From Leptolyngbyaceae cyanobacterium (lineage in GTDB: Bacteria > Cyanobacteriota > Cyanobacteriia > Cyanobacteriales > Nostocaceae): 64,000 nucleotides of DNA. The position numbers and the translations under genes were made by a program. The notes under the pieces were generated by a model. That model saw only the letters and a list, made by a program, of their open reading frames with translations, searched no databases and had not been told where the DNA came from. Positions 772 to 35,300 of this stretch are shown piece by piece. The stretch lies in NCBI GenBank assembly GCA_036704005.1, contig DATNQO010000120.1:3298-67297 (forward strand). Reading direction: 5' to 3'. Numbering within the stretch: position 1 is the stretch's first letter; each line of letters begins with the position of its first letter.

Positions 772-800
772 TTTTGATTATCAAACTCCTCACCTAAGCG

Positions 801-852
801 CCTCTAACCTCTAACCTCTAACCTCTAACCTCTAACCTCTAACCTCTAACCC
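801..852. repeat. STRR array (CCTCTAA x7)
   Basis: Perfect heptamer tandem array. It overlaps the stop and the last codons (LEVRG) of the glycosyltransferase gene. Confidence 0.9.
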
Positions 853-2933: not shown

Positions 2934-2999
2934 GTAGGGTGCGTCAGATGTGGAAAATCCCTTCATTTGTACGAAATTATTGGGTCTGACGCACCCTAC
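2934..2999. repeat. hairpin repeat with 15-bp perfect arms (GTAGGGTGCGTCAGA ... TCTGACGCACCCTAC)
   Basis: Arms at 2934-2948 and 2985-2999 are exact reverse complements. Related copies occur at 45414-45477 and 45772-45838. Confidence 0.85.
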
Positions 3000-3417
3000 A
3001 GTTAGTTTGATTATGACACTTGGTTAAGTCCTAAGAAAATAGATATAAGTAGGAAGACGCAAATAAACTACACCACAAAAGTTTGAGTCAAAAAGCTAAA
3101 AACCTCCTACCTCTGCTGAGTGAGCGTAGCCGCACCACTGCCTTAACCTCCCCGTAATTATTAATTCATCCCAAAGTTCGCTTGAAGGAGATAACTTTCG
3201 AGGTACGGTTATCTACTACAGAAATCCCTCCCTGGTTTGCTGCCTAGCCAGAACAAGACGCGGTAGATTGAATATGTAGCCAAAAAAGTACACCGAGCTA
3301 CTGCCAATCTTAAAACTTGCGCTCTTTGATACTGGCTGGCATCACATCAGCACTGCAATGCTTCCACTAAAAGATAAGAATTAAATAAGTAATACTGTTT
3401 TTCGAGCGAATGTGACT

Positions 3418-4398: not shown

Positions 4399-4522
4399 TC
4401 ACGATTTCTTCTCACTTTGATAGTCGTAGGGTGGGGAGTAGGGAGTGCTGAGTGAATTATCCCCCTCATCCCCTGCTTCCCCTACTCGCTTTTTTGGGAA
4501 CCATATCAATAGCGTGCATTGA

Positions 4523-5605: not shown

Positions 5606-5642
5606 GGCTAGGGACTGGAGACTGGGGACTGGGGACTGGGGA
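5593..5642. repeat. STRR array (GGGACTG-type units)
   Basis: Tandem heptamers overlapping the last codons and stop of the 4523-5605 ORF. Confidence 0.85.
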
Positions 5643-5678
5643 AGTGATAATTACTTATGACTCAGCACTCAGCAAAAT

Positions 5679-6128
5679 TTAGCCAGGAGTTTTGACTTGG
5701 CTAGCCATGTCTAAGTAAGAACTCATATTCGCACCTGGACGACGACGACCATTAGAACTAGAGGCTGAAGGCGTTAAGTATTTAGGTGCGAATGTAGTTT
5801 CACCTGGTGGTGTTGTATTAGCAACTGGCGCTTTTTCTGGTTCAGCTTGCTTAGGTGCAGCTTTGCCATTTTTACCATTTTTAGATGCTTCTACTTTGGC
5901 GGTCGCAGGCGCAGGCTTTTTCTCTGTTGCTGGTGGCGCTTCTGCTTTGGCGGCGGCTTTTGTACCGTTAGATGCTACTGGTGTAGCTTGTGGGGCTGGT
6001 GCTGGTGCTGTTTGTTCAGTGCTATCTTCTTTCAGCTCTAAGTAGTAGCCACTGCTTTTCTTACCACCGATTAATCCGGTAAGGAAACTGAGAATCCCAG
6101 CGATTAATTTTTTGATAAAACCGAACAT
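5679..6128 (-). CDS. hypothetical Ala/Pro/Lys-rich protein with hydrophobic N-terminal helix
   Basis: 149-aa ORF. MFGFIKKLIAGILSFLTGLIGG is followed by a low-complexity APAPAPQATP... region. The plus-strand ORFs 5847-6045 are shadows. Confidence 0.45.
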   Translation of the reverse strand: MFGFIKKLIAGILSFLTGLIGGKKSSGYYLELKEDSTEQTAPAPAPQATPVASNGTKAAAKAEAPPATEKKPAPATAKVEASKNGKNGKAAPKQAEPEKAPVANTTPPGETTFAPKYLTPSASSSNGRRRPGANMSSYLDMASQVKTPG

Positions 6129-6523
6129 GAGAATGGCTCCCGAAGTTTTATATCTGTAAATAGACCGTAATGTTAAAAACTACGTCGTAATACTACGTTT
6201 TTTGACTATCAGCTATTGAGTAACAAACCTTGGAGGTTTGTGCTTTATCAAGCTTAAGAATATAAGCTGAGGTTTTCAGCCTTTGTTGGCAAATACTTAC
6301 AAGCTGTAGATATCGAGAATTAATTATTCAATTTTACCGCTACACAGAGCAAGATTCTGAAAGGTTGCTTAATAAAAATTAACATAAATTTTGTTCATAG
6401 GTATACATTGACACAAGCAATGATTTTACCCTGAACCAGTGGGAAGACTGTCATAATCTTTTTGCTGAGGGTAATCAGACTCAGTTAAATTTTCAACAGA
6501 GGCAAACACAAGCAAATTTGTTA

Positions 6524-7189
6524 ATGAAAACTCAAAATCAGCCACGTAATCCCGTAGTATTAGTGCATGGCATTACTGATACGGAAGTTGTCTTTAATTC
6601 GATGGCAGTTTACTTAAGACAATTAGGTTGGACTGTATACACAATAAATTTAGTACCTAACAACGGTGAAGCCCCGCTTAATGTATTGGCGCAGCAGATA
6701 GTTGATTATGTAGCTGCAACTATTGAGCCAGGACAACCCTTTGATTTAGTGGGTTTCAGCATGGGGGGAATTGTCAGCCGTTACTACGTGCAGAGATTGG
6801 GAGGTATTGAGCGTGTACAGCGCTTTGTGACAATTTCCTCACCTCATAATGGCACGGTAGTAGCTTATGCTTCTAGGCTTCCAGGGTGCTTGCAGATGCG
6901 TCCCAATAGCCTATTTCTGCAAGATTTGAATCGTGATGTGCAAATGTTGGAGCAGTTAAATTTTACTTCTATTTGGACACCTTACGATTTGATGATTATC
7001 CCCAATCACAGTTCAAAAATGCCTATAGGCAAAGAACTAATTATTCCCGTAGCGCTGCATTCGTGGATGCTGTCAGATTATAGGAGTTTAACAGCCGTCG
7101 CCGCAGCTTTAGCAGAACCGATTAATGTCGGGGATTGGGGACTGGAGACTAGGGACTGGGGACTGGGGATGGAGGATTTTGTTATTTAA
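6524..7189 (+). CDS. alpha/beta-hydrolase, lipase/esterase-like
   Basis: VVLVHGITD oxyanion-type start and nucleophile elbow GFSMGG. ATG at 6524 preferred over TTG at 6518. The C-terminal tail is encoded by STRR units. Confidence 0.7.
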   Translation: MKTQNQPRNPVVLVHGITDTEVVFNSMAVYLRQLGWTVYTINLVPNNGEAPLNVLAQQIVDYVAATIEPGQPFDLVGFSMGGIVSRYYVQRLGGIERVQRFVTISSPHNGTVVAYASRLPGCLQMRPNSLFLQDLNRDVQMLEQLNFTSIWTPYDLMIIPNHSSKMPIGKELIIPVALHSWMLSDYRSLTAVAAALAEPINVGDWGLETRDWGLGMEDFVI

Positions 7190-7274
7190 GTTACATTTTA
7201 AATTTTGATAGTAGTTAGTTGAAATACAGTTTTTCACGAGTTTAGCTTATATCCTAATTTGGTCATTAGTCATT

Positions 7275-7354
7275 AGTCATTAGTAAGTAGAGACGCGATT
7301 AATCGCGTCTGTACAGTCATTAGTAAGTAGAGACGCGATTAATCGCGTCTGTAC
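7275..7354. repeat. perfect 40-bp tandem duplication, each unit holding a 20-bp palindrome
   Basis: Unit AGTCATTAGTAAGTAGAGACGCGATTAATCGCGTCTGTAC occurs at 7275-7314 and 7315-7354. Palindrome AGACGCGATTAATCGCGTCT is at 7291-7310 and 7331-7350. Confidence 0.9.
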
Positions 7355-7587
7355 AGTCATTAGTCCAGAGAAAGGTAAAAGGTGAAGGCTTTCCCCTTTC
7401 CCCCTTCCCCTGTCCCCTCTTGTAATTAAAAATTAGTTTGCGGTTTTGCCTGTTGACTGTTAGCTTTACCCGTAGAGGAAATATGAAATATGCAGTTTCT
7501 CAATGGGGATGAAGGAAAGTAACCACAGAAGTCTAAAATTAGTTATTCTTTTGATATCTTGACAAAACTACTTGTGGTTGTTGGCTG

Positions 7588-8385
7588 ATGCTGTCATTTC
7601 TTAGCGCTGCGAATCCTTGGTTGGTGGGAGTTGGACTAAATACCGTTCTATTAAGTTTAGTCTGGTTCGCTCCTAAAAAACTGCTGACTCCAGCCGGTGT
7701 GTTTCATGCCTGGTTATTGGGCATACTGATTTGGGGAACTTTAGGCTGGCAGGGATATGTAGTAGTTATGTTCTATTTTATTGTGGGTTCTGGTGTTACA
7801 CGCATCGGTATGGCACAAAAAGAGGCTCTTGGTATTGCGGAAAAGCGTTCGGGAGCAAGAGGCCCGGAAAATGTTTGGGGTTCTGCTCTAACTGCGGCGC
7901 TTTGTGCTATGGGTGTCGGTGTTCTCAATGCCAAAATTTTCCCACTCAATCCCCAGTCCCTAATCCCTAATCCCCAGTCCCTCCTGTTATTAGGTTACGT
8001 CGCCAGCTTTAGTACAAAACTTTCTGATACCTGTGCGAGTGAAGTGGGTAAGGCTTACGGTAAAAGCACTTTCTTGATTACTACATTGCAACCAGTACCT
8101 AAAGGTACGGAGGGTGCGGTGAGTTTAGAAGGGACTTTTGCTGGTGTGGTGGGTTCAGTGGCGATCGCTATTATCGGTTGGGGTGTCAATTTAATCAGCC
8201 CATTAGGTATTCTTTGGTGTGTGCTGGCTGCTTTGATTGCCACGAATTTGGAAAGTGTGATCGGCGCTACCCTGCAATCTAAATATACTTGGTTAACTAA
8301 CGAGATCGTTAATATTCTTAACACTTTAATTGGTGCGATCGCAGCTATATTTTTTGCATTTATTTGGGCATACTCTTTTAGTTAG
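7588..8385 (+). CDS. integral membrane protein, DUF92/TIGR00297-like
   Basis: 265-aa polytopic ORF. Motifs KRSGARGPENVWGS and GTEGAVSLEGT resemble the DUF92 family. Confidence 0.55.
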   Translation: MLSFLSAANPWLVGVGLNTVLLSLVWFAPKKLLTPAGVFHAWLLGILIWGTLGWQGYVVVMFYFIVGSGVTRIGMAQKEALGIAEKRSGARGPENVWGSALTAALCAMGVGVLNAKIFPLNPQSLIPNPQSLLLLGYVASFSTKLSDTCASEVGKAYGKSTFLITTLQPVPKGTEGAVSLEGTFAGVVGSVAIAIIGWGVNLISPLGILWCVLAALIATNLESVIGATLQSKYTWLTNEIVNILNTLIGAIAAIFFAFIWAYSFS

Positions 8386-8592
8386 GAGTAAAGGAGGATA
8401 ACTTTTGACTGTTGAGTGTTGACTAAATTCTCTCTTGGTTTGATAGCTGGAGTAGAAAAATATACCTATGGCAAGACAATTAAATCAAAATAGCAAATCC
8501 ATTGAAATTAAACGATTTTTATTTTTCAACTTGCCATTAATTATTTATAGTTTATAAAATCTTGTTTTTAGCCGTTTTTACCAGGTGTTCTT

Positions 8593-9351
8593 ATGGAAAC
8601 TCTGTCATTTTTGAGTATTGATGACCAACCCATTTCAATTGAACAAACCGTAAAATACCTGCAATCTTCCGGGAAGTTGAGTCAATTTATTAGTGATGTT
8701 CTGCGTCAGTACGTCATTGAGCAGGAGATTCAAGGGCGAGATGATGTTGATATCAATCCAACCCTCACCGAACAAACAGTGATTGATTTTCGCCTGAAAA
8801 ATCAACTAGCTGACCCCCAAGCTTTTCAGGAATGGTTAGCGAGAAATGGTACAGATTACCAAAGATTTCATGCCTCAATTACTTCTAGCTTTAAATTAGA
8901 AAAATTGAAAACTTTGGTGACACAAGCCAAGCTGCCAGAGTATTTTATTGAGCAGAAAATTTTTCTGGATAGAGTTGTATTATCCCGGATTGTAGTCGAT
9001 AGTCGAGAACTAGCAGAAGAATTACAACTGCAAATTGCAGAAGGAGGCAGTTTTGAACAATTAGCCAAAGAGTATTCTGTATTAGACGATCGCGTTGTGA
9101 ATGGCATGATGGGGCCAATTAGTCGTGGTACTATGCCAGACAAGTTGCGGGCGGCTATTGATGCAGTTAGTCCAGGTGAATTAGTCGGGCCTATAGAAAT
9201 TGATGGACGTTATGGTTTGTTTCGAGTGGAACAATTTCTGCCAGCGTCTTTAGATGATATTCAACTCAAGCAAGCATTACAAAACGAATTATTTGAAAAA
9301 TGGTTAGCAGAGAAAATTCAAAAGCTGACGGTGAAATTACAAGTGAGTTAA
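8593..9351 (+). CDS. PpiC/parvulin-type peptidyl-prolyl isomerase-like protein
   Basis: The C-terminal half (SRIVVDSRELAEELQLQIAEGGSFEQLAKEYS...GPI..G.........GELVGPIEIDGRYGLFRVEQ) matches the rotamase pattern. Confidence 0.65.
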   Translation: METLSFLSIDDQPISIEQTVKYLQSSGKLSQFISDVLRQYVIEQEIQGRDDVDINPTLTEQTVIDFRLKNQLADPQAFQEWLARNGTDYQRFHASITSSFKLEKLKTLVTQAKLPEYFIEQKIFLDRVVLSRIVVDSRELAEELQLQIAEGGSFEQLAKEYSVLDDRVVNGMMGPISRGTMPDKLRAAIDAVSPGELVGPIEIDGRYGLFRVEQFLPASLDDIQLKQALQNELFEKWLAEKIQKLTVKLQVS

Positions 9352-11987
9352 AACTTCTGGAGAATGAATCCCTAAAAACCAAAGTGCTAACGGCTATACC
9401 TTGGAATCAACCCCCCCTCAATTGGCTTACTCCTGAGCAAAAAACCCGATTAGAAGAACGTTTAGAAATCCGTCGTTATCGACTAGGTGAAAAAATCTGG
9501 TCGAGTGAAGCGGGTGGTTATCAGTTTTTCATCGTCGATGGAAAGGTGCGCTTGCGGGACGAAGAAAGCGGTCAATCTCTATCAGCCTTACAAGTGGGAG
9601 ATTGGTTTGGTGATTTACAAAAGTTACCAGGAGAATACAAGGCTGTAGCCGCTAGTAAAGAAGTGATCTTGGCTTGTTGGGATACCCATTTGTGGGCGGA
9701 AATATCGACCCCAGCAATCGAAGATTTTTGGCTGGGATTGGTGAAACAGGAGAATATAGTAGTTGAAAATGAAGTAAAACCTTTTCAGCCTCCGGTTGTG
9801 CAACCATCTGTGATTGTTAAAGAACAGACACTAAGTCAGCCAGCTACTACGCCACTCACACACAGTTATCCTTTTGTTAGTAGTTGGAATACGGCGGCTG
9901 CTTGTTTAACAATGGCAGCACAACAGCTAGAAAATCCAGTGAACTTGGAATGGGTACAACGCCAACTGCGGGGACAAAATCCCAAACAAGTTGTGGAAGC
10001 TGGAGAAAAGTTAGGTTTAGTGTTGCGACGACTGCAAGTCAGTTGGGAGGAGTTGCGTCAGTTAACTTTCCCGGCTTTGTTAAGGTTGCAAGTTGAGTCT
10101 GTTCCTCAGCCTACTTGGGTTGTGGCTTATGGGATGAAAGGCGATCGCATAATTGTTGCTAATCCTTTAAATCCTGATAATCTTTGTGAAAGTCTACCAC
10201 AATCAGTATTGGAACAATGTTGGGATGGTCAGTTGTGGCAAGTAGAACTGATTTCTCGACAAGAAAAATTTAATTTAGGTTGGTTCATCCCAGCCGTTTG
10301 GAAATACCGCAAGCTATTAACAGAAGTATTAATAGCGTCTTTGACGTTGCAAGTGTTGGGTTTAGGCACACCGCTAATTACCCAGGTTGTGATCGATAAA
10401 GTCATGGTACAGGAGAGTTTACCCACTCTTGATGTCATGGCGATCGCACTTTTGTTAATAGCCATGTTTGAGTCTGTGTTGGGGATTCTGCGGTTATTTA
10501 TCTTTACCCATACAGCCAGACGTTTAGATTTAAGCTTATCAGCGCAATTATTCCGTCATTTGATGCGGCTACCCTTGGCTTATTTTGAGTCACGGCGTGT
10601 AGGTGACACAGTAGCCAGAGTGCAGGAACTAGAACAAATTCGTTCCTTTCTCACAGGTACAGCCTTAACAGTAATTTTAGATAGCATCTTTGCCGTAGTT
10701 TATTTGGCATTGATGTTTTATTACAATATTCCCTTGACCTTTGTAGCCTTGGCAGTGCTGCCCTTGTTTGCCACACTGACAATAGTTGCTACCCCAATTT
10801 TACGTAACTGGTTGAACGAAACCTTTAACCGTAGTGCTGATAGCCAATCGTTTTTAGTAGAAACAATTACAGGTATCCATTCTGTGAAAGCTCATGCAGC
10901 TGAAACAGTAGCACGCGATCGCTGGGAAGGCTTATTTGCTCGTTTCGTGCGTACTGGTTTCAAAGCTTCCACAACTTCCAACATTAGCAGTAACATTGGT
11001 GATTTCCTCACCAATTTTTCTTCCTTATTAATTTTGTGGTTTGGTGCAAAACTAGTCATCGACCATCAACTAACAATTGGGCAATTAGTAGCCTTTCAAA
11101 TGCTTTCCGGCAGAGTCACAGGGCCATTATTACGCCTAGTACAATTATGGCAAAATCTGCAACAAGTTCTACTTTCCGTAGACCGCATTGGTGATATTCT
11201 CAACGTAGCGCCAGAAGCAGAAATGGGGACGGGTTTAGTTTTACCACCCCTGAAAGGTCAAGTTAACTTTGAACAGGTATTTTTCCGCTACAAAGCTAAT
11301 ACCGAACCAGTGCTAAGAGGAATTTCCTTTAATGTAGAACCAGGGCAATTTGTCGGAATTGTTGGGCGTAGTGGTTCTGGGAAAAGTACCCTGTCTAAGT
11401 TACTACAAAGACTTTATCAAATTGAATCAGGACGTATTCTCATAGATGGTTTTGATATCAAAAGTGCAGATTTAGCTTCCTTGCGACAACAAATTGGCGT
11501 AGTTCTCCAAGAAGACTTTCTATTTAACGGTTCCATCTTAGAAAATATCACCCTTGGTAATCCCAATATTACCGCCGAGCAAGTAGTCGAAGCCGCTAGA
11601 CTAGCCGTAGCCCATGATTTTATCAGTCAATTACCCTACGGTTACGAAACTAATGTAGGAGAAAGAGGTACAGCATTATCTGGAGGACAGAGACAACGCA
11701 TTGCTTTAGCAAGATTATTCCTCTCTGACGCGCCGATTTTAATATTAGATGAAGCTACCAGTGCTTTAGATAGTGAAACCGAACAGCAAGTGTTGCAAAA
11801 TCTGCAAAAAATTTCCGCCAACCGGACTGTATTTCTCATCGCTCACCGCTTTGCACCCTTAAAACGAGCCGATTTAATTCTCGTTTTAGAAAAAGGTGTG
11901 ATTGCAGAACGGGGAAATCATACAGAACTCTTACAACAAAAAGGTTTGTATTGGTCACTATATCAACGCCAACAAGCAAATGTTTAA
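9300..11987 (+). CDS. ABC exporter with N-terminal cyclic-nucleotide-binding domain and C39-like (apparently non-catalytic) domain
   Basis: cNMP-type region YRLGEKIW...FFIVDGKVRL...VGDWFGDL, a C39-like region, six-helix TMD, Walker A GRSGSGKST, signature LSGGQRQR and Walker B ILILDEATS. Start is uncertain: ATG 9300 overlaps the upstream gene by 52 nt, and an in-frame GTG lies at 9384. Confidence 0.85.
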   Translation: MVSRENSKADGEITSELKLLENESLKTKVLTAIPWNQPPLNWLTPEQKTRLEERLEIRRYRLGEKIWSSEAGGYQFFIVDGKVRLRDEESGQSLSALQVGDWFGDLQKLPGEYKAVAASKEVILACWDTHLWAEISTPAIEDFWLGLVKQENIVVENEVKPFQPPVVQPSVIVKEQTLSQPATTPLTHSYPFVSSWNTAAACLTMAAQQLENPVNLEWVQRQLRGQNPKQVVEAGEKLGLVLRRLQVSWEELRQLTFPALLRLQVESVPQPTWVVAYGMKGDRIIVANPLNPDNLCESLPQSVLEQCWDGQLWQVELISRQEKFNLGWFIPAVWKYRKLLTEVLIASLTLQVLGLGTPLITQVVIDKVMVQESLPTLDVMAIALLLIAMFESVLGILRLFIFTHTARRLDLSLSAQLFRHLMRLPLAYFESRRVGDTVARVQELEQIRSFLTGTALTVILDSIFAVVYLALMFYYNIPLTFVALAVLPLFATLTIVATPILRNWLNETFNRSADSQSFLVETITGIHSVKAHAAETVARDRWEGLFARFVRTGFKASTTSNISSNIGDFLTNFSSLLILWFGAKLVIDHQLTIGQLVAFQMLSGRVTGPLLRLVQLWQNLQQVLLSVDRIGDILNVAPEAEMGTGLVLPPLKGQVNFEQVFFRYKANTEPVLRGISFNVEPGQFVGIVGRSGSGKSTLSKLLQRLYQIESGRILIDGFDIKSADLASLRQQIGVVLQEDFLFNGSILENITLGNPNITAEQVVEAARLAVAHDFISQLPYGYETNVGERGTALSGGQRQRIALARLFLSDAPILILDEATSALDSETEQQVLQNLQKISANRTVFLIAHRFAPLKRADLILVLEKGVIAERGNHTELLQQKGLYWSLYQRQQANV

Positions 11988-12084
11988 TAATTTCGGTTAG
12001 GAAAGGAACTAGGGCTTGTTTTCCAAGTCTTTAAATACCTCCTAACCGCCCTTAAAATTAGGTAATAGGTAATTGTCTGTTACT

Positions 12085-12149
12085 ATTACCCATTACCTAT
12101 TACCAACCCCAAGATAGGATAAGTGTTTAAGCGGACATAATATAATATC
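12085..12149. repeat. dispersed repeat (second copy at 54898-54955)
   Basis: Shared core TTACCCATTA..AACCCCAAGATA..ATAAGTGTTTAAGC..ACAT.ATAT in the same orientation at both loci. Confidence 0.7.
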
Positions 12150-12153
12150 TCAC

Positions 12154-13347
12154 CTAAGATTCTACTGTTGATGTAACTCCATCTATCTGTAGCACGAAGC
12201 ACATTTTACCCGCAGCTATATTTAAACTGAGGGCAATTACTCCAGCAACGAAACGGTCGAAGTTAAATGTAAAACCAAGTTCTTGAGCAAGTGCTGGTAA
12301 ACCAAAGTAAATCATAAAAATCTGTACTATTAAAGGCGTTCCCCGGAAAAAATCTACATAAACCCTAGCTAACAAACGCCCTGGAAGAAAGCGAGAAAGG
12401 CGGAAAAGGGCTATTAAAGTACCAGTTATTAAACCTAATACCGCAGATAAAATTGTCAGTTGTAGGGTAACTAATGCGCCTTGCAATAAAATCGGGAGGA
12501 ACGGCAAAATCAGATTAGGTAAGGTAGATTTATCAGCATTATTTGGATTTTCGTATGGTGATTTCGCTGGTAATGAAGCTGGAGGAGCTACTTTAAACCA
12601 TTTTTGATAAATTTGCGAATATGAGCCATTTGCTAAAACCTGATTTAAACCATCGTTAATTAGTTGTAAATTAGGGGAATTTTTGGCTGTGGCAATGCCA
12701 TAATATTCTTCTGTAAGTAATTTTTCAACAACTTTAATTCCTTGCAGATTACCTGTATTAATGGCGTACAAAGTTACAGGCGCATCATTAATAACTGCGT
12801 CTACATTACCGTTGACTAGTTCTTGCAAGGCTAGGGGTGCAGAATCAAAACTGCGAATTTGTACCCCAGGAATAGTTTTGGCTTTGTCTGCGCCAGTTGT
12901 GCCAATTTGGACGGCAATTTTTTTATTTTTGAGGCTGTCAAAACCTGTAATATTTTGATTATCGGCGCGAATGGCGATCGCTAATCCTGCTTTAAAATAG
13001 GGACGAGAGAAAGCCACCGTCTGGGAACGTTCGGCGGTGATGGTGATGGAACTAATCGCCGCATCTACGGTTTTGCTTTGCAAGGCTGGAATTATACCAT
13101 CAAAAGGTAGACTTTGGAAATCTATTTTAAAACTAGCAGCAGTGGCGATCGCATTCATCAAGTCAATGGAAAAACCCTGTAAATTACCACCTTGTCCGGT
13201 AAACTCAAAAGGTGGAAAAGCAGGTTCTGTAGATATTCGCAGAGTCTTCCCCCGATTAAGATTACCACTACAAGCTGTCAGTAACAAACAACTTAAGCCA
13301 ATCACCAGACACCCGCATAACCAATGCCTAAAAACCGATTTAGTCAT
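12154..13347 (-). pseudogene. amino-acid ABC transporter, fused lipoprotein substrate-binding domain + permease (BgtB/GlnH-GlnP-like), 3'-truncated
   Basis: Lipobox LLTAC, a periplasmic-binding domain, then a permease domain that stops after ...FFRGTPLIVQIFMIYFGLP...ALSLNIAAG. The expected AY.AE...EAA-loop half is missing and replaced by an unrelated 17-aa tail. Confidence 0.6.
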
Positions 13348-13447
13348 CTCATCCTTCCCTTATGATCACAATTAACTTTAAAGGTTAACTGTTGACGGTT
13401 GACGGTTGACGGTTGACGGTATAACGGGTTATGCAATACATCATCGG

Positions 13448-13648
13448 TTAAAGATATTCGCGCAAGAAATCGAAGGGATCGTCTTCCCAACAAGGTTCGG
13501 GTATCATCAACAGCAAATTCCTATTGATGTCTGTTTCGATTTCATCAATGTCTTCTCTGTCAAACATTTCCAATAAAACTTTCCAGTCGCGTTCTTTCAA
13601 AGAAGTAAATATTGGCGCGTATATCTGTGGATTGACCGGATAATTCAC
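13448..13648 (-). CDS. small acidic hypothetical protein
   Basis: 66-aa ORF with non-repetitive sequence in its own spacer. No family recognised. Confidence 0.4.
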   Translation of the reverse strand: MNYPVNPQIYAPIFTSLKERDWKVLLEMFDREDIDEIETDINRNLLLMIPEPCWEDDPFDFLREYL

Positions 13649-13740
13649 AGGCTAAATTTCAGTTAATGAATGCAGAAAATGGGTGTTAGACTGGCAAATA
13701 CTTCTAATATATCTTAAATCAGAATATTTGTAAATATGTA

Positions 13741-13890
13741 ATAGTCAATAGTCATTAGTCATTAGTCAATAGTCATTAGTCAATAGTCAATAGTCAATAG
13801 TCATTAGTCATTAGTCATTAGTCATTAGCAACTGACAACTGTCACCTGTCACCTGTCACCTGTCACCTGTCAACTGTCAACTGTCAACTG
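13741..13890. repeat. long composite STRR arrays (AGTCAAT/AGTCATT units, then CACCTGT/CAACTGT units)
   Basis: About 150 nt of tandem heptamers read directly. Confidence 0.9.
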
Positions 13891-14580
13891 TCAACCGTCA
13901 ACTATTTCCACCCCAAACACCTCTGCAAAAGCCTCGACAACATGACCTCTGACTTCTTGAGTGGTAATTCCTGGTATCCATTCAATTAAACTACCTACGG
14001 GCTTATCAGCAATACCACAGGGAACGATTCGCTCAAACCCTGTCATATCGGGACAGACATTTAAAGCGAAGCCGTGCATAGTAATCCAACGGCTAACTTT
14101 AATGCCGATCGCTGCAACTTTTCGCCCTTCTAACCAAACTCCAGTTAGAGGTGGTGTGCGATCGCCTTTTAACCCGTAAACTGCAAGTACACGGATGATT
14201 ACTTCTTCTAATTGTCGCAAATACCAATGTAAATCCTTGCAATGGCGATGCAGATTTAAAATCGGATACCCTACTAATTGACCGGGACAGTGGTAAGTAA
14301 CTTCACCACCACGTTCGATTCTATGTATCTCAAACTCACTGTGGTTAGGGTCAAATTTGAGAAAGTCCAAACTGCTGCCCTGCCCTAATGTATAGACTGG
14401 GGGATGTTCCAATAAGATTAGCACATCATCTAGATTAGGGTTATCGATGCGTTGGCGCAAGAGCGATCGCTGCCATGCGTGAGCCTCTAAGTATGGCATC
14501 AATCCTTTGTTATATAACAAACAACTTTTTACCGGGGATTCATTACTATGGATCATGCCAAAAATCAACTGAGTTAACAA
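13891..14580 (-). CDS. lipB: octanoyltransferase (lipoyl(octanoyl) transferase)
   Basis: Motifs [19 protein letters not shown] and [22 protein letters not shown]. The true start may be an internal Met. Confidence 0.9.
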
Positions 14581-15151
14581 CTAAATATATTTCAACTAAC
14601 ACAACTTAGTAATGCGAAATTGTCAAGCTTTGCAAAGGATTTTAAAGGAACATAAAGGGAAGCAACCATAGGAAAAACAAAGTGCTAGTTTGAATATATA
14701 ACCACATCAGGTGTTGGGAGGAATTCTCTACAATAAGCATCACGCCAAGTTCAGAGGAACAAATACACTGGCTGATGAATCTAAAATGAGTTGTTTGCAT
14801 CTACGGAACTTGTGTAATCCCTTAACAATGAGCAAAACCTCTTTTAACAGACCATAAGTAACTACTAACAGTTATATAAAGTTTGTGTTGATGAAGAAGG
14901 AAGTCAAAACAGTGATTGCTCACACTACCTTAATTGAGAAAGATATGCGCTCATCCAATTGCCTAGCAAACAGTTGGTATCGCATTTAGGTAGTAATATC
15001 ACAAGCAAGATGTAAAAAGCTTAAAGAAAGCAAGCTAGAAGTATATAAAAAAGTTCACAAGATGGTGCTGGTGCAATAAATATAACTTACCGCAATCTCT
15101 TTTCATACAAAAACTACATCAAATATTGTGCTATCGAGCGGGAGAGTTTAC

Positions 15152-15805
15152 ATGAAGCTTGTCATCCACGGCAAAAATATAGAAATTACCGATGCGATTC
15201 GAGAATATGTGCATCAAAAAATTGAAAAGGCAGTTAGTCACTTTCAGAACATCACAAACGAAGTGGATGTCCATTTAAGCGTGGCTCGCAATCCCCGAAT
15301 TAATCCCAAGCAAGCGGCGGAAGTCACCATCTTTGCAAATGGTAGCGTGATCCGCGCCGAGGAGAGCAGCGAAAATTTATATGCAAGTATTGACTTAGTA
15401 GCAGACAAGATTTCCCGACAATTACGTAAATACAAAGAAAGACGAATAGATAAGAAAACTCAAGCGCAACCAACTACCGAAGCCATTGTACCAGAACCAG
15501 TAGTTGCAAATTTAATAGGCGATCGCACTCCCGAACTCCCCCAAGAAGTCGTCCGCACCAAATACTTTTCTATGCCCCCGATGACAGTTGCCGAAGCCTT
15601 AGAGCAACTGCAACTAGTAGGGCATGATTTTTATATGTTCCACAACGCTGAAACAGGAGAAATTAACGTCATTTACGAACGCAACCACGGCGGCTACGGT
15701 GTAATTCAGCCCCGCAATAACAACGGACACACCAACGGACACACCAACGGTAAAAATGGCAAAGCCCATCATATCGTGATGCCCGAAAAGTCTCATAGTA
15801 AGTGA
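15152..15805 (+). CDS. hpf: ribosome hibernation-promoting factor, long form (LrtA-like)
   Basis: [20 protein letters not shown]... N-domain plus C-terminal dimerisation domain [29 protein letters not shown]...[21 protein letters not shown] lies 6 nt upstream of ATG 15152. Confidence 0.9.
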
Positions 15806-16161
15806 CGTTGCTGAAATAAGGGTGATTCTTGTGGGATAGGCATCATCAGCGCCTTGGGAATACAAAGGACGGGCAAAATGCCCATCCCACAAAACTTTCT
15901 ACATCATCCCACAAATATGCAGCTTTGCCCCTGGACATCTGGTAGAAATTTTCTTGAAGATGTAAAATTCACTATGAAAGACTAGCTTGATATAGCGAAT
16001 TCATCACATTCATCTCGCCGATTTATTCAAAAAGTCGGACAGATGAATTAGGGCATCGTTTTCACATCATGGATGAATAGTCTAGTTGAAAAGTAATATT
16101 TTTCCACCAGATTTTAGTAACTTAATAGCTACTAATTCTCGATTTTAGGTAAATAACAGGT

Positions 16162-16335
16162 TTAAAAATCTTCCCAATCCGAAGGGAACTTGAAAGTGTA
16201 AATCTGAGGAGGATTATTTACAGGAGGAGTAGCTGGAGGCTCAGTTGGCTGTTCAGATGAAGATTGCTCTTCTAAAAAACGAGCAAAAAATGGTACTTCT
16301 GTGGTACTTGATGCTATTAGTGTATTTGTAGACAT
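16162..16335 (-). CDS. microviridin-type RiPP precursor peptide (MdnA/MvdE-like)
   Basis: 57 aa from ATG 16335 (AAGAGGGGA Shine-Dalgarno upstream). Leader contains PFFARFL. The C-terminal core YTFKFPSDWEDF fits the microviridin TxKxPSDW[ED][ED][FYW] pattern and ends at the stop codon. Confidence 0.8.
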   Translation of the reverse strand: MSTNTLIASSTTEVPFFARFLEEQSSSEQPTEPPATPPVNNPPQIYTFKFPSDWEDF

Positions 16336-16800
16336 AATATCCCCTCTTAGGAAATATGTGTTAAACATACTCAAGCATATCAATAATTACCTAAAATCAC
16401 AAGAAAAACAAACAATTTGGTTAGTAAGTATTCAAAAAATCATGTACTATTAAAAACTGTTTATTTGGTAAATAAATAGTACTAAAATATCATATATTTT
16501 TACATTATCAAGCAATTATAACACCAATTCAATAATATAGTCAAAAACAAATAAACCTTGTTTTAAGAGGCTGTTTGAAAAGTGATTTGCTGTGATATTA
16601 GACCTATTGCATAAGTAGTTCTCATCGGTGTTCATTCCTTCTCTACGTTCCCTACGGGACGCTCCGCATTTCAAGTACCTAAAGGCGCGAGGAGTGTCAA
16701 CTCAGGACTTACGCATCAAAGTTTTCTGTTGAGGCAGGGTGTAAGGGTTTTCAAGATTTACACCCCTACACCCTTGATTTTTCTTTAAAGTCCCGCTAAC

Positions 16801-16840
16801 AAAACAACCCGCCCACGCCATCAAATGAGACGTGGACGGG
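16801..16840 (-). terminator. rho-independent terminator candidate for the 16887-17942 gene
   Basis: 10-bp stem (CCCGCCCACG / CGTGGACGGG, one mismatch), followed on the minus strand by TTGTTTTGTT. Confidence 0.6.
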
Positions 16841-16886
16841 AAATGTTCAACTATGGGTATCTACCCGCGCTTAATTAGAGGCGATA

Positions 16887-17942
16887 TTACACACCTGCGC
16901 CGCTAGCTTGACCTGCTAATCTTTGTTGAACCTTGCTCTTAGCAGCTTTAAACTCAGTAGCTAGTTGCTCACTTTGCTCGCTGCTGAGGTTGTTACGAAT
17001 AGCAGCAAACAAGGTGCTTTCTTCTTGACGAACGTGATCCATCACGACATCAGCCAAGTCTTTAATTCTATCTTTGATTTCAGGATTAGATGGGCTGATA
17101 GCCTTGATTTGCTCTAACCGACGCTTCATGTCAGCTTGTTCGTCATACAGTTCTTGGGTATCACTTTGACCGTAGAAAGAACGCACTCTGGGATATAGTA
17201 CTTCTTCTTCTGCTTCAGCGTGAGCGGTTAGATCCTTGTAGAGTTGACCGAAGTACTCTTGGATTTTTTGAGGATTGTTACTTTGGGCAATTTCTGTGAA
17301 CAGGACATTTACTTTGTTGTGATCCAGACGCAGAACGTCTTGGATGTTCATGTCTTGCTTATCAGAACCTTGGGTAACGGCGCTACCTACTGCACCACTG
17401 AAGGCGGCGATCGCATCTTGAACTCGTCCCCAAATACCTTGATCTGCGTCTTGTCCGGTGAGTTCACGCACACCCAAAATTTCTAAAATACCTTTGAGTT
17501 GTTCTTGGTGAGCGCGGTTCTCAAAGTTAACAGCGTTTAAGGGGCCGATGGCTGCTAATATGTCAGCGCCTACTTTTTGGGCTGCTTTGTGAACCAGCAA
17601 ACCGCTCATTACTTGTTGGTGTTTGAGCAACTCGTGCTTAGATACTTTTTCAAAGAAGCTGAGTTGAGAACCTTGCATCAATTGGCGAATTTGGTCAACC
17701 ATTTCGGTGACTGTTTGTCTTGGTTGTTGGGGAACACCATATTGAACGATAACAGTTTCTATGATGCCCAAATTCTTACGGTCATCTTCGAGGAAATCGC
17801 GAAGTCTTCTAGAGATTTCATCATCAGTTGTTTCTCTGAGAAACCTTTCCTCATTCTCAATAATCAACTGTTGAAGTAGTTTTACATCTGCTAATTTTAC
17901 ACCGATAGCATTACGTTTTGCATCATCTAAAGTTGATACCAT
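16887..17942 (-). CDS. hemerythrin-like (HHE cation-binding) domain protein with helical N-domain
   Basis: 351-aa ORF. The C-terminal half has H...E/H..E spacing (LRLDHNKVNVLF, HAEAEEEVLYP, MDHVRQEESTLF) typical of hemerythrin-like domains. Confidence 0.5.
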   Translation of the reverse strand: MVSTLDDAKRNAIGVKLADVKLLQQLIIENEERFLRETTDDEISRRLRDFLEDDRKNLGIIETVIVQYGVPQQPRQTVTEMVDQIRQLMQGSQLSFFEKVSKHELLKHQQVMSGLLVHKAAQKVGADILAAIGPLNAVNFENRAHQEQLKGILEILGVRELTGQDADQGIWGRVQDAIAAFSGAVGSAVTQGSDKQDMNIQDVLRLDHNKVNVLFTEIAQSNNPQKIQEYFGQLYKDLTAHAEAEEEVLYPRVRSFYGQSDTQELYDEQADMKRRLEQIKAISPSNPEIKDRIKDLADVVMDHVRQEESTLFAAIRNNLSSEQSEQLATEFKAAKSKVQQRLAGQASGAGV

Positions 17943-18205
17943 TCTGAAGTTCTCCTCAAGGAAAGTAGTCGGATTTTTAACTAATCTCAGGTTGACATAA
18001 TTGTTTGTGGTCTTTCCTCCTTCTTTTGAGCGATTAACTAGCTAACTCAGGATAGAAAACAAATATTTTTTTTATAGAAATAAACAGTTCTACTTTTAGA
18101 TGTACAAACATTCAATAATTACTCCATCTATAGATAGATAATTTTTTTATTTGACTTGTTTAAATTGACTCAAAGATATTTAATTTTATTGGAGATTTAT
18201 TGATA

Positions 18206-18952
18206 ATGCCGGAAACCCCCGGATTAGGAGAACAGGCGCTAAATAAAGCGGCAGAGATCGGGTTATCTAGCCAGTTAGATGAAGTCGAAAATCTTGATGT
18301 AGATATCAAAACCGATCCACTGAAAATAGTCCAGGGACAGGTGGATACGGTCAAGATTGACGGTACAGGTTTGGTAATGCAGAAAGACCTCCGTGTAGAG
18401 TCAATGCAAATGCAGGTCAATAATGTTGCCATTAATCCTTTAAGTGCAGCCTTTGGCAAAATTGAACTGACCAAACCCACAGTTGGTAGTGCGCGGGTTG
18501 TTTTAACAGAATCTGACATTAACCGCGCCTTCAATTCTGAATTTGTGATTGCCAAAATTCAAAGCCAGAAAATACATATTAATGGGCAGTTGAAAACTGT
18601 TAAGCCTCAACAAATAGACTTCCGCTTACCAGGTGAAGAAAAAGTAGCAATCAATGCTGACATTCTGTTAGTAGAAAATAACGAAACTCACAAAGTTGCC
18701 TTCACCGCCGTACCGCAAATTAATGCTAATGGCACATCTGTGTCACTGGAAAATGTTACCTACGGCGAAGAAGCAGAAATTTCACCAGAATTAACACAAA
18801 AGTTCGTAGAACAAACTAGTGAAATTTTAAACTTAAGCAACTTTGATTTAGAAGGTATGAGTTTGCGACTAAAGCGACTACAGGTAGAAACAGGCAAACT
18901 CACCCTGCAAGCGGAAGCTTATGTAGAACAAATTCCCTCAAGTAATAACTAG
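18206..18952 (+). CDS. DUF2993-like (LmeA-type) protein
   Basis: About 248 aa. GGAG lies 11 nt upstream of ATG 18206. The repeated beta-rich pattern resembles the DUF2993 family; assignment is tentative. Confidence 0.45.
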   Translation: MPETPGLGEQALNKAAEIGLSSQLDEVENLDVDIKTDPLKIVQGQVDTVKIDGTGLVMQKDLRVESMQMQVNNVAINPLSAAFGKIELTKPTVGSARVVLTESDINRAFNSEFVIAKIQSQKIHINGQLKTVKPQQIDFRLPGEEKVAINADILLVENNETHKVAFTAVPQINANGTSVSLENVTYGEEAEISPELTQKFVEQTSEILNLSNFDLEGMSLRLKRLQVETGKLTLQAEAYVEQIPSSNN

Positions 18953-18966
18953 TAGGATATTTAATT

Positions 18967-19527
18967 ATGGAAACCACAGATACAACTACTACAGGTTCCT
19001 CTGCTTCCTCTCCATTTCCGAATATTCCGCCAATTATTGAAACAGACGATCGCGAATATAGTGATACAGGTGTACCAAGTACAGTGGCGATCGCCGGACA
19101 CCCCCTCCACCCCCTCAGCGTGATTTTCCCTATCGCCTTCCTAGCCGCCGCCTTGGGTAGCGACTTCGGTTACTGGCTAACCCGCGATTACTTCTGGGCT
19201 AGGGCTTCTATCTGGCTAATTGGCTTAGGTTTAGGAGGCGGACTCATCGCCGCCGCCATAGGCTTAAGCGACTTCTTAAAAATTGAACGTGTCCGCAAAC
19301 GTAACGCCGGTTGGGTGCATTTAATTCTCAATGTGTCCATCCTCGTTTTGACACTAGTAAACTTCCTTGTCCGCTTGGGTAATATTGACGGCAGAATCTT
19401 ACCTTGGGGACTATTAATCTCTCTAGTTGTTGGTACTCTAACTAGCGCTTCTGGCTGGTTCGGTGCAGAACTTTCCTATCGCCACAAAATCGGCGTAGTA
19501 GGCGCTGGTAGTAAGAGATATCCCTAG
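18967..19527 (+). CDS. DUF2231-like membrane protein
   Basis: 186 aa with four hydrophobic helices and a GHPLHP motif before TM1. Confidence 0.5.
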   Translation: METTDTTTTGSSASSPFPNIPPIIETDDREYSDTGVPSTVAIAGHPLHPLSVIFPIAFLAAALGSDFGYWLTRDYFWARASIWLIGLGLGGGLIAAAIGLSDFLKIERVRKRNAGWVHLILNVSILVLTLVNFLVRLGNIDGRILPWGLLISLVVGTLTSASGWFGAELSYRHKIGVVGAGSKRYP

Positions 19528-19885
19528 TTAGGGGTGTATACTTCCCTTCGGGACGCTACGCGTAGCTTGCTTCCACGGAGTGGTACGACTGCGCTCAGTA
19601 ACCGGGTATAGGGGTATAGGGGTGTAAGGGAAAAATTACTGCTTCATACTCCCTTTCTCTGACAAAGGCTAAAATCTAGCGTAGTTTTTAGCCTGAATAA
19701 ATGAATTATCGACACTCTCAGACAAGAACCATCTTCCTATCGCTACTCATCATGGTAGTGATGGGATTTTTGTTTAAGAATAATAACAGCCCTGCTCATC
19801 AATAGTTGAATACAGCACTTTTCACTTTGATGAGGTACATTCATCTAGCCTCTAAGCGCTAGTCTCTAGCCTCTCTCCCTATATT

Positions 19886-20107
19886 ATGCAGAAAAAGGTT
19901 AAAGTTAAACCTAATTCCAAACAACAAAAAATTGTCGAAGAGGATGATGGTAGCCTGACAGTACACCTAAAATCCCCTCCGGTAGATGGTAAAGCTAATG
20001 AAGAGTTAATCAAGCTTTTAGCTGAAAAATTTGATGTGCCAAAATCTCATATCACAATTAAGTCTGGTTTATCTTCCAGACAAAAGTTAATTGAGATTGA
20101 CACATAA
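19886..20107 (+). CDS. DUF167/YggU-family protein
   Basis: 73 aa; V.VKPNSKQ..I......[34 protein letters not shown] matches the YggU pattern. Confidence 0.7.
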
Positions 20108-20210
20108 GCAGGGGCTAGAGGCTGGAAGCTAGAGGTTAGGGGTTAGGGATTAGATTAACGCTCCCTAGTTACAAAATAGACCCTAACTCAAAAACCAACC
20201 ATACATTGCA

Positions 20211-25834: not shown

Positions 25835-27760
25835 TTATAGATAATTATTTCCAACATGCTCATGAGAACCGAATGTTTCTAAGCTTAAAATACCAGCCGA
25901 TGATTTACAACTAACTCGTAAACTAGAATCAACACGAAAGTAATAAATATCTGCATTTGCAAATTTTGCAAATTGTAAACTTCCATTTTGCTTAAGCACT
26001 ACGGTATCTCCATCTGCTTCTGTTAGTAAATAAGATACTTTCGCTAGTGTTTCCTGTAGCTTAACTCTATCTCTATTATTACGATTATTTTGATAATCCC
26101 TTATAAAAGAGCTTGTATAAGATAAACGAGGAAAAACTAATAAATCCTTTGATAAAAAATCATTTTTGCACTTTTTCCAAATTAATGCACCCCAATTTGA
26201 TAAAATAGCATTATTATCAATCGTAAATATAAATGTTTCGGGGATACCTTCAGCTTCTCGTAAATTGATAGAGCCTGCCTCCATTAATGCAAATTTGACA
26301 GGATTGATAATTGAAGTATCAAGTTGTATAGGTATTCTAGGAATATTTATAAGCGTTGGATTTACTCCTTCAAGAACATAAAGAAGCTCATCAGCATATA
26401 ACATTCCAATTATATCCATATATGCTTGTAAGACTCTAGAACTTGCTACTAAGTTAAAAGAAATTCTGTATCCAGAATTTCTGAAGTTAGAAGCTATATC
26501 GTCTAACCAAACCAACAATTCATCTACACCATTCTTAAATCTTTCAGTGTTCGCTGTTGAAAATCCTTTTGGTATATATATATTAGCATTAAGCCCTTGA
26601 CCTCTAAGAAAATCCTGAATAATATCAGCTGTAACTCTAGATATTAGAGTATCACTAGCAATTAAAAAATGATAATCTTGTTTCCCCTGTTCTAATTTAC
26701 CTTGATACAACGCATAAATTACACTAAGTTCAATACTTGCCAACCGAACATCTCTTATACGACCTCCAAAGAGATTTGTAATTGCTCTTTCTTTAAGTTG
26801 ATCAATTATACTTTTAGCTTCTGGACTATACTCTTCAAGTTCTATATTTGTATAGTTAATACTCCGCCGCAAAATGTCGAACCAATAGCTATGGTCGTAC
26901 TTTCTATCAAGTTGATTAGTTAATAGACTTGTACCAAGAGTGGAAATAACTACTCGACGCATAGAGGTTGTTTTTATAGAATTTACTAATGTCCAATCTG
27001 GGGTTTCTGATTCAAGGGATAAATCATAAAGAATATCCTCAAATTGGTTTGTTTCTATTTGTTCTGTAATGGGGAAAATTACACTAGCACTTTCTAACAG
27101 ATTTTTCTGTTGAAGTACTTCGTCAAGTTGATCTGGACGTGTCTCGAAATTGTCTCTAGCTTCGCTTGCAATCCTGTTTACGTCAACCAACAACGGCTCG
27201 AAGCCAGCCTCAAGCAGAGGCTCTGCCAAAGTCTCCACTAAAGAAGCTAACCGCAACACTTCACCTATTTCTTCTTGCTGCACTCTTTGACTTATTGCTT
27301 GGGCTAACTCCTGCGCCACTTCATCAGGTTTGGTATACGCCAACGCTGTCCACTCCTGAGCTTCTCGCAAATCCTGTGTATCTGCGTCATCATCAGTTAA
27401 TCGCTGCGCTACATAATCTAATAAAAATTCCCCCAGTTCATCAAATCTTTCCTGCCCAAACTCCTTCTTCAATTCCCGCAACAATAAATTGCGATCGCTA
27501 ATATCCATCTCATACATCTCATAACCCACCTGACGACACAACCGCGACAGCAACACATGAGCAACCGCCACCCAAGGGGCTTGAGGAACAAAGTTTGCCC
27601 AAATTTGGTAAAGTAAATCAGGTGTCAGTACCAAAGGAAACGCCGCATGACGAGCTAAGTTGCGGTGTGCTTCCCCAAACTGCTGGGCAAACCCTTCTAC
27701 CCGTCTTTGGGCTATTCTCATCGCACGACTTTGGTTAATATCTGCCGTCACATCAGCCAT
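25835..27760 (-). CDS. three-module protein: helical N-domain (vWA-MoxR-associated by position) + CARF-like domain (APE2256/Csx1-type motifs) + RelE/ParE-like C-terminus
   Basis: 641 aa; the start overlaps the vWA stop by 13 nt. aa 267-445 hold VVISTLGTSLLTN, RLASIELS, FLIASDT and FNLVASS. aa 595-641 read FAKFANADIYYFRVDSSLRVSCKSSAGILSLETFGSHEHVGNNYL (RelE/HigB-like). Confidence 0.6.
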   Translation of the reverse strand: MADVTADINQSRAMRIAQRRVEGFAQQFGEAHRNLARHAAFPLVLTPDLLYQIWANFVPQAPWVAVAHVLLSRLCRQVGYEMYEMDISDRNLLLRELKKEFGQERFDELGEFLLDYVAQRLTDDDADTQDLREAQEWTALAYTKPDEVAQELAQAISQRVQQEEIGEVLRLASLVETLAEPLLEAGFEPLLVDVNRIASEARDNFETRPDQLDEVLQQKNLLESASVIFPITEQIETNQFEDILYDLSLESETPDWTLVNSIKTTSMRRVVISTLGTSLLTNQLDRKYDHSYWFDILRRSINYTNIELEEYSPEAKSIIDQLKERAITNLFGGRIRDVRLASIELSVIYALYQGKLEQGKQDYHFLIASDTLISRVTADIIQDFLRGQGLNANIYIPKGFSTANTERFKNGVDELLVWLDDIASNFRNSGYRISFNLVASSRVLQAYMDIIGMLYADELLYVLEGVNPTLINIPRIPIQLDTSIINPVKFALMEAGSINLREAEGIPETFIFTIDNNAILSNWGALIWKKCKNDFLSKDLLVFPRLSYTSSFIRDYQNNRNNRDRVKLQETLAKVSYLLTEADGDTVVLKQNGSLQFAKFANADIYYFRVDSSLRVSCKSSAGILSLETFGSHEHVGNNYL

Positions 27761-31371: not shown

Positions 31372-31417
31372 ACTAACTAATTTTCACCGTACCAAGTATC
31401 ACAAAATACCCACTTTA

Positions 31418-35296: not shown

Positions 35297-35300
35297 GTGA

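Follow-up and report, generated by a model that had tools for sequence, protein, structure and literature searches.

A microviridin precursor gene without neighbouring ATP-grasp ligases in a cyanobacterial contig

How can a peptide precursor be matured when the enzymes expected to act on it are not encoded beside it, or is such a gene no more than a leftover? The question is raised by a 57-codon open reading frame (ORF) on the minus strand of a 64,000-nucleotide stretch of contig DATNQO010000120.1 of a Leptolyngbyaceae cyanobacterium (GCA_036704005.1); this whole stretch is called the window here, and coordinates refer to it unless another locus is named. The ORF encodes a class I microviridin precursor, and no ATP-grasp ligase gene was found with it in the 64 kb. 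The answer we lean towards is that the gene is a conserved survivor of cluster erosion and that its product is probably matured in trans by ligases encoded elsewhere. A preliminary description of this DNA had offered processing in trans and a relic as the two options. Each turned out to be partly true: by synteny the gene is the remainder of an eroded cluster, and it is also intact, constrained and accompanied by a full cluster in the closest genome.

A precursor gene and its missing partners

The precursor, its parts and its two neighbours are the following.

16162..16335, minus strand: coding sequence of a class I microviridin precursor (MdnA/MvdE family), 57 codons plus stop, translated as MSTNTLIASSTTEVPFFARFLEEQSSSEQPTEPPATPPVNNPPQIYTFKFPSDWEDF
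16340..16348, minus strand: Shine-Dalgarno sequence AAGAGGGGA, 4 nt upstream of the ATG, with the same letters in the Anabaena azotica locus L012
16264..16293, minus strand: PFFARFL recognition box of the leader (residues 15-21), which continues into LEEQ (residues 21-24), a putative NosP-type cleavage motif
16204..16263, minus strand: linker SSSEQPTEPPATPPVNNPPQ, rich in Ser and Pro (residues 25-44), the variable segment of the leader
16165..16203, minus strand: core IYTFKFPSDWEDF (residues 45-57), C-terminal and in a single copy
15128-15805, plus strand: hpf, convergent with the precursor gene
16887-17942, minus strand: hemerythrin-domain gene, the other neighbour of the precursor gene

The ORF scored 43 bits against Pfam PF12559 (Inhibitor_I10; E = 5.5e-11, curated cut-off 21) and 40.1 bits against NCBIfam NF033738 (microvirid_RiPP; E = 4.8e-10, cut-off 26). 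Chain P of PDB 5IG9, which is MdnA bound to its ligase MdnC, aligned with the peptide across leader and core, and its leader matched the PFFARFL box. The match is far beyond chance, and the ORF at 16162-16335 is a genuine microviridin-family precursor gene. The preliminary description of a 57-residue ORF with a Shine-Dalgarno sequence, a PFFARFL leader and a C-terminal core was thus borne out by the translation and by both family scores. A mere chance reading frame might be suspected, given the shortness of the ORF and its AT-rich intergenic setting, but we give this a negligible probability: the scores of the hidden Markov models are far over their curated cut-offs, 26 homologues share the invariant leader and core, and the orthologue in A. 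azotica is annotated as WP_190474160.1. A longer reading frame of 73 residues would begin at a TTG at position 16383; the ATG start is preferred because the homologues share a conserved MSTNT N-terminus.

The peptide has the makings of a tricyclic product. Its core, T47-F-K49-F-P-S52-D53-W-E55-D56, fits the family pattern T-x-K-x-P-S-D-x-(E/D)-(D/E), with T47, K49, S52, D53, E55 and D56 as the ring-forming residues and F48 in position 5 (P1). The box from P15 to L21 and residues T47, K49, P51, S52, D53 and E55 are invariant in the 27 aligned sequences (the precursor and its homologues); they correspond to the ligase-recognition helix and to residues of the two esters and the amide. Class I microviridins are defined by a single core and the lack of a double-glycine motif (PMC13039773). 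The window peptide has one core per precursor and no GG, and the double-glycine cleavage site of the class II/III (C39-exported) precursors is absent from it. No second precursor was found in the window by motif search in all six frames.

To find the maturation genes, the non-overlapping ORFs of the window with 100 residues or more were scanned with Pfam, and tblastn was run with queries from three related clusters, which comprised six ligases, three MdnE-type ATP-binding cassette (ABC) transporters, two GNAT proteins, GUN4, a patatin-like protein and the small cluster proteins of 134 and 146 residues. No Pfam match to PF21068 (MvdC/MvdD-type) or to any other ATP-grasp family was obtained among these ORFs, and the six ligase queries gave nothing under E = 0.9 in the 64 kb, remnants included. 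Neither an acetyltransferase nor an MdnE/PF06472-type ABC transporter, nor a remnant of either, was detected in the 64 kb by the two methods, and tblastn gave no match in the window to GUN4, the patatin-like gene or the 134/146-residue cluster genes or their remnants. The only ABC transporter of the window is a C39-peptidase exporter (9300-11987), which is 22-27% identical to MdnE-type proteins, a generic similarity. The window thus contains neither the two adjacent ligases nor the ABC transporter and GNAT at the locus that mark a canonical mdnA-E/mvdA-E cluster. The preliminary description had noted the lack of ligases, acetyltransferase and transporter next to the precursor, and this extends to the whole 64 kb; the hpf and hemerythrin-like flanks that it named were confirmed by Pfam.

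Erosion of the cluster and conservation of the gene

A scan of one genome per species with the precursor alignment gave 180 relatives, of which 78 loci were kept (loci are numbered with L and homologues with P). The closest reference was contig21 of Anabaena azotica FACHB-119 (L012), of which positions 9710-20168 are collinear with the window from 16625 down to 7846 at 93-97% nucleotide identity; at the amino acid level, hpf is 99% and LipB 97% identical. The A. azotica orthologue (WP_190474160.1; P0043) is intact, about 89-91% identical in amino acids, and lies at the same hpf/lipB locus without adjacent ligases. Annotated as a microviridin/marinostatin family tricyclic proteinase inhibitor, it has the 57 residues, the PFFARFLEEQ, the Pro-rich linker and the IYTFKFPSDWED of the window peptide, but its last residue is Arg and not Phe, there are five further substitutions in leader and linker, and an ABC transporter gene and two nonribosomal peptide synthetase (NRPS) genes lie upstream. 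The preliminary description had made its case depend on conservation in relatives, for which this orthologue and the five intact alleles described below now speak.

Collinearity between the two genomes ends just upstream of the precursor gene.

16625, no strand: synteny breakpoint with A. azotica, about 290 bp upstream of the start codon

Past this point lie, in A. azotica, the ABC transporter gene, preceded by the two NRPS genes (A-MT-PCP and TubC_N-C-A-PCP-TE), and, in the window, the hemerythrin gene. The arrangement on a metagenomic contig whose precursor peptide (P0001) is 96% identical is compatible with the A. azotica one. The ABC transporter beside the A. azotica orthologue was considered as a microviridin transporter and rejected: it more probably serves the neighbouring NRPS cluster as exporter, since it follows a C-A-PCP-TE module and since the same paralogue (70-72% identity) precedes the precursors in many complete clusters in which a second, MdnE-type ABC transporter is present too.

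The A. azotica genome also carries a complete mdn cluster, on contig24 (L049), with four precursors, the ligases MvdC (WP_190474818.1) and MvdD (WP_190474819.1), a LamG-patatin protein, a 134-residue membrane protein, an ABC transporter, a GNAT and GUN4. The Nostoc ChiSLP02 ligases, encoded next to a precursor with the same IYTFKFPSDWED core, share 85% and 87% identity with this MvdC and MvdD pair. The orphan locus and the full cluster on another contig make trans-maturation feasible in this sister genome. For the window's own lineage, a 1581-bp contig of Logan run SRR5823602 is 100% identical to the window, and no ligase could be linked to that run; four ligase cluster members were traced to other samples, namely GCA_037931745.1, SRR13498954/58/60 and SRR31851736.

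Comparison of the loci yields a graded series. The order NRPS (C-A-PCP-TE), ABC transporter, precursor, ligases and further cluster genes is found in L016, L019, L023, L027, L029, L050, L063, L065 and L082, and the precursor at the junction of NRPS and ligases is often of the Pro-rich IYT(F/L)K(F/Y)PSDWEDR type. Only the left half (NRPS, ABC transporter, precursor) is present in L012, where the hpf junction replaces the ligases and downstream genes. From the window the NRPS and ABC transporter genes are absent as well, and the precursor stands alone with about 290 bp of upstream DNA. Other ligase-less loci have kept different companions: a patatin-like gene, a 134-residue gene, an ABC transporter and GUN4 in L035 (Nostoc sp. 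TH1S01), the 134-residue gene, the ABC transporter and GUN4 in L052, and the 134-residue gene followed by the precursor in L013 (Nostoc sp. FACHB-110) and in the Logan contigs L009-L011. Of the 130 precursor ORFs found in 77 reference loci, all but this series and a few at contig ends lie no more than 2 kb from a ligase. L012, L013 and L035 are the three well-flanked ligase-less precursors in reference genomes, and each of these genomes has a ligase locus elsewhere (L049, L051 and L044/L082, respectively). The synteny series identifies the window precursor as the remainder of an eroded cluster.

Several observations on these loci stand apart from the series. The mdn cluster abuts the end of an NRPS cluster in the nine loci with the full order (about positions 1-10000 in each), and the ligases there are flanked on either side by one of two related ABC transporters; the NRPS and mdn pathways, both for protease inhibitors, may be co-inherited. 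Around the TH1S01 precursor (contig-185, 9968-16992), no ATP-grasp ligase lies within 10 kb on either side. In the L013 satellite (contig1, 9968-10186), which follows the homologue of the 134-residue membrane protein and is far from any ligase, PFFAHFL and LEYQ replace the otherwise invariant PFFARFL and LEEQ; it may be a decaying copy or have an altered recognition motif.

What has happened to the gene itself can be read from five distinct intact alleles: those of the window, P0001, P0045, A. azotica and the 80%-identical P0002. The window differs from A. azotica by 5 synonymous and 6 non-synonymous codons, and from L009 by 5 synonymous and 12 non-synonymous codons. The amino acid changes are confined to the N-terminal part of the leader, the linker and the last residue (F, R or S), with the conservative E22D of L009 as the exception. 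Between the window and A. azotica there is no amino acid change from PFFARFL through LEEQ, and in the 12 core codons before the last the window, A. azotica and L009 show synonymous changes only. As far as so small a sample allows a qualitative statement, the recognition and ring residues appear to be under purifying selection although the gene is unlinked to ligases.

The surroundings of the gene also contain elements that could serve its expression.

16515..16544, minus strand: promoter-like TTGACT, 18-nt spacer and TATAAT with an extended TG, found by a consensus scan with 11 of 12 matches; predicted function
16336..16388, minus strand: proximal 5' region common to the mdnA genes of other Nostocales clusters
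16008..16048, minus strand: hairpin in the 3' untranslated region (UTR), a 14-bp stem with an internal mismatch, kept in L012 and L009
15866..15888, minus strand: G+C-rich hairpin resembling a terminator, in the gap where the precursor gene and hpf converge, found by a consensus scan with 10 pairs, 6 of them G-C; predicted function
16008..16565, minus strand: self-contained module of promoter region, gene and 3' hairpin, 560 bp, 74.5% identical in nucleotides to L009-L011

Conservation of the promoter-like site in L012 and L009 is partial, and its position would imply about 170 nt of 5' UTR. Matches in blastn reach position 16388 in L020, L021 and L029, upstream of the first precursors there, and TGTGAnTTnAGGnAATTATTGATAT is the conserved block of this proximal region in the three-way alignment of window, L012 and L009. 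The 3' UTR folds at -37.5 kcal/mol (z = -3.4), and in L009 a compensatory change from C-G to U-A preserves the pairing of the hairpin. In L009-L011 the module has other flanks, namely the homologue of the 134-residue protein on one side and a 99-residue ORF and an S8 subtilase on the other; since the module recurs amid different flanking genes, the precursor gene persists as a self-contained unit. Expression of the stand-alone gene is suggested by these elements.

Three smaller points concern the same region. Between the stop codon and the hairpin (16050-16110, for example GACTATTCATCCATGATGTGAAAACGA), conservation between the window and L009 is about equal to that of the coding region. A terminator-like site within the end of the coding sequence (16188-16171) has a weak 5-bp stem and a T-run that is broken in A. 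azotica, and was taken as chance. In L009-L011 (Logan SRR27453499-501, 930-1839), the 80%-identical precursor copy adjoins the 99-residue ORF and the C-terminus of the S8 subtilisin-family protease, which has a GTSMATP motif; the proximity of this protease to a Phe5 microviridin predicted to inhibit subtilisin may or may not be a coincidence.

The same evidence bears on the main rival reading, in which the gene is a non-functional relic, the last piece of an eroded mdn cluster, unmodified or unexpressed and nearing pseudogenisation. The stepwise loss of partner genes along the synteny series is what this would predict, the L013 satellite has lost the invariant Arg of the box, and the products of clusters b and c of TH1SO1, one of them ligase-less by our analysis, went undetected. 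In addition, two nucleotide exchanges (CGT to TTT) have altered the last residue in the window allele alone. We nevertheless consider a relic unlikely, though by no means to be dismissed. All five alleles, and also the L009-L011 module with its 74.5% identity, have an intact ORF, the substitutions spare the recognition box and the ring residues with only synonymous changes in the core, and the Shine-Dalgarno sequence, the 3' hairpin and, in part, the promoter-like site are conserved; a neutral ORF of 174 nt would be expected to show changes in the 22 critical codons at such divergence. Taken together, intact ORF, constraint, module, promoter-like site and hairpin argue qualitatively for a functional gene.

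A functional peptide might still act without ATP-grasp cyclisation, being secreted in linear form or handled by another system such as the C39-ABC exporter encoded 4 kb away. This exporter belongs to the same conserved syntenic block, and the precursor gene has expression signals of its own. The peptide, however, is without the double-glycine motif needed by C39 exporters (PMC13039773), and the exporter was rejected as a processing partner on this ground; moreover, it sits in a housekeeping-like block that is present irrespective of the other neighbours of the precursor. The strictest constraint falls exactly on the ligase-binding and ring residues, which is hard to explain if the peptide is left unmodified. 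We therefore regard this alternative as very improbable.

Probable maturation in trans and the predicted product

If the peptide is a ligase substrate, its closest relatives should tell which kind of enzyme could act on it. Among the 26 homologues obtained by database search, the window peptide belongs to the sub-group P0001-P0011, to which a long Pro-rich linker insertion is restricted (alignment A1) and whose core is nearly fixed as (I/P/F)(Y/F)TFK(F/Y)PSDWED plus one variable residue. Members of this sub-group in Nostoc ChiSLP02/DedSLP01 (P0003; L002/L025), Brasilonema sp. CT11 (P0005; L008) and Planktothrix sp. (P0010; L004-L007) share the Pro-rich linker with the window peptide and have cores of the form (I/F)(Y/F)TFK(F/Y)PSDWED plus one or a few residues, that of P0003 being identical in IYTFKFPSDWED. 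At distances of 150-1800 bp they have two ATP-grasp genes of the MvdD family and an ABC transporter gene, whereas the window gene has none of these within 64 kb, and the Brasilonema and Planktothrix clusters have a GNAT in addition, unlike the window locus. As these members sit beside canonical ligases, such ligases are expected to accept this type of core and linker.

The preliminary description had taken the Phe at the Tyr positions and the ED in place of EE as a possible new inhibitor variant, which overstated the matter. WED is the majority state among the aligned Nostocales precursors, KFPSD occurs in dozens of precursors and KFPSD cores have been mentioned in print (PMC8386392), and the identical IYTFKFPSDWED core adjoins ligases in Nostoc ChiSLP02/DedSLP01 and Planktothrix. 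Judged by these comparisons, the core is not a new type and the gene adds to a well-known peptide family. In the literature searched, we found no chemical characterisation of a product with this core, and the exact core strings (FKFPSDWED and related ones) did not occur in the searchable literature.

MdnA of Microcystis aeruginosa (the precursor of microviridins J and L; PDB 5IG9) has the PFFARFL helix and a Pro-containing leader end, as the window peptide does, and its core pattern T-x-K-Y-P-S-D-W-E-E/D is of the same type, with KYP where the window has KFP; microviridin L also has Phe at position 5 (PMC7823629). Microcystis leaders are without LEEQ, whereas the window peptide has LEEQ, a longer Pro-rich linker and no clustering with mdnB/C. 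In MvdE of Nostoc punctiforme and Planktothrix (the LEEQ/LAEQ group), LEEQ directly follows PFFARF as in the window peptide, but the leaders are short and not Pro-rich. Class I leaders were divided into two groups in 2026, and the window leader is a hybrid of these, with both LEEQ and a Pro-rich C-terminal stretch. The LEEQ/LAEQ motif is cut by the M1 protease NosP, whose gene lies 0.8 Mb away from its cluster, and a different, unknown protease has been proposed for Pro-rich class I leaders (PMC13039773). With NosP acting in trans, trans-encoded steps are already established for the microviridin pathway.

From this we propose the following course of events. The gene would originally have stood at the junction of NRPS, ABC transporter, precursor and ATP-grasp ligases that is common in Nostocales; the ligases would have been lost from the locus in the A. 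azotica lineage, with the NRPS and ABC transporter genes absent as well in the genome of the window. The precursor may be transcribed from its own promoter, and its PFFARFL helix would recruit a pair of MvdD/MvdC-type ligases encoded at another chromosomal site, in a second and complete mdn cluster. These ligases would form the T47-D53 and S52-E55 esters and the K49-D56 amide, and the leader would then be removed by trans-encoded proteases, that is, by a NosP-like M1 peptidase at LEEQ and an unknown activity for the Pro-rich stretch. The predicted product is a tricyclic inhibitor with Phe at position 5, directed against serine proteases of the subtilisin or chymotrypsin type. This target is our best guess from the Phe5, as position 5 sets protease selectivity: microviridin L (Phe5) is most potent against subtilisin, and its F5Y exchange shifts inhibition to chymotrypsin (PMC7823629). 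With a hybrid leader, the mature N-terminus is not predictable, and masses were computed for alternative products.

Tricyclic IYTFKFPSDWEDF: [M+H]+ 1640.742, N-acetylated 1682.753
Tricyclic QIYTFKFPSDWEDF: [M+H]+ 1768.801, N-acetylated 1810.811
Tricyclic YTFKFPSDWEDF: [M+H]+ 1527.658, N-acetylated 1569.669
Tricyclic product cleaved after LEEQ and untrimmed, SSSEQ...DF: [M+2H]2+ 1848.352

Several points weigh against maturation in trans. Ligases in the source genome are deduced from a relative that is only about 94-95% identical in nucleotides, and the distribution of mdn clusters is patchy. Of the three clusters of Nostoc sp. TH1SO1, products were detected for the ligase-bearing cluster a but not for the other two (PMC8386392), one of which (L035) is ligase-less by our analysis. 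The loss of the invariant leader-box Arg in L013 indicates that some satellites decay. The spacing between leader box and core is 25 residues, against 15-17 in the in-cluster precursors of A. azotica, although in-cluster relatives tolerate spacings of up to 28. With 57 codons, the selection signal is qualitative, and the expression, cyclised product and protease inhibition put forward here for this gene are predictions from its sequence.

With these reservations, maturation in trans by ligases encoded elsewhere would have a parallel. In the prochlorosins, ProcA precursors are scattered in the genome and modified by one ProcM. The window gene resembles them in being a conserved-leader precursor dispersed from its modifying enzymes; prochlorosins differ in being lanthipeptides, a different class of peptides that are made by ribosomes and then post-translationally modified (RiPPs), with different enzymes. 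It is possible, although we hold this with less assurance than trans-maturation itself, that Nostocales microviridins are partly prochlorosin-like, with one ligase pair serving escaped precursors that have their own promoters and independent regulation. The window gene would then be the minimal case of a graded set of satellites (L035, L052, L013/L009, L012 and the window), and its hybrid leader would need a two-protease or unknown route of removal and might give an unusually long N-terminal overhang. We found no demonstration of trans-processing of a dispersed microviridin precursor in the literature searched, and no published description of ligase-distant microviridin precursors in the full-text literature, a search that did not cover the main phylogenomic survey (Ahmed et al. 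2017).

Should the precursor be matured in trans, mining that is limited to ATP-grasp neighbourhoods would under-count microviridin diversity, and the substrate range of one ligase pair could exceed what its own cluster would lead one to expect. Should it be a relic, it would document the gene-by-gene erosion of a RiPP cluster. The gene also offers a compact test substrate, with a Phe5, KFP and WED core behind LEEQ and a Pro-rich leader, that bears on the removal of Pro-rich class I leaders. As this peptide family is already well understood, in its chemistry as in its targets, the gain is incremental and the gene a modest addition either way.

Other features of the window

No Rfam family reached its gathering score in the window, and no further copy of the synteny junction (16540-16900) was found there as a dispersed repeat.

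Within the block that is collinear with A. azotica, a PpiC-type rotamase gene overlaps the start of the gene for the C39-peptidase exporter (8593-11987). The exporter has 895 residues, of which about 190 form an N-terminal extension, and contains a C39 peptidase domain. The two genes form a bacteriocin-type export module, which is also found in A. azotica, and no precursor was identified near it. In the same block, a fusion of solute-binding and permease domains (12154-13347, minus strand) has 397 residues in the window versus 507 in A. azotica (SBP_bac_3 and BPD_transp_1; L012 13619-15142). About 955 bp of L012 (14755-15709) correspond to 24 bp in the window, which shortens the permease domain, and the window gene is probably a pseudogene or a truncated variant.

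The region 25835-39106 is dense in genes resembling those of conflict systems. They encode a 641-residue protein with a Cas_APE2256 domain, a VWA-CoxE protein, an AAA_5 (MoxR-like) ATPase, caspase-iSTAND and CHAT-domain proteins, a caspase-nSTAND1 protein of 1096 residues and two proteins without a Pfam match (555 and 167 residues). The region looks like a defence or programmed-cell-death island. Finally, two tandem paralogues of 415 and 408 residues with weak matches to DUF3466 (49181-51742) adjoin genes for SLH-domain proteins, namely a GHL10 hydrolase-like protein and an OprB porin.

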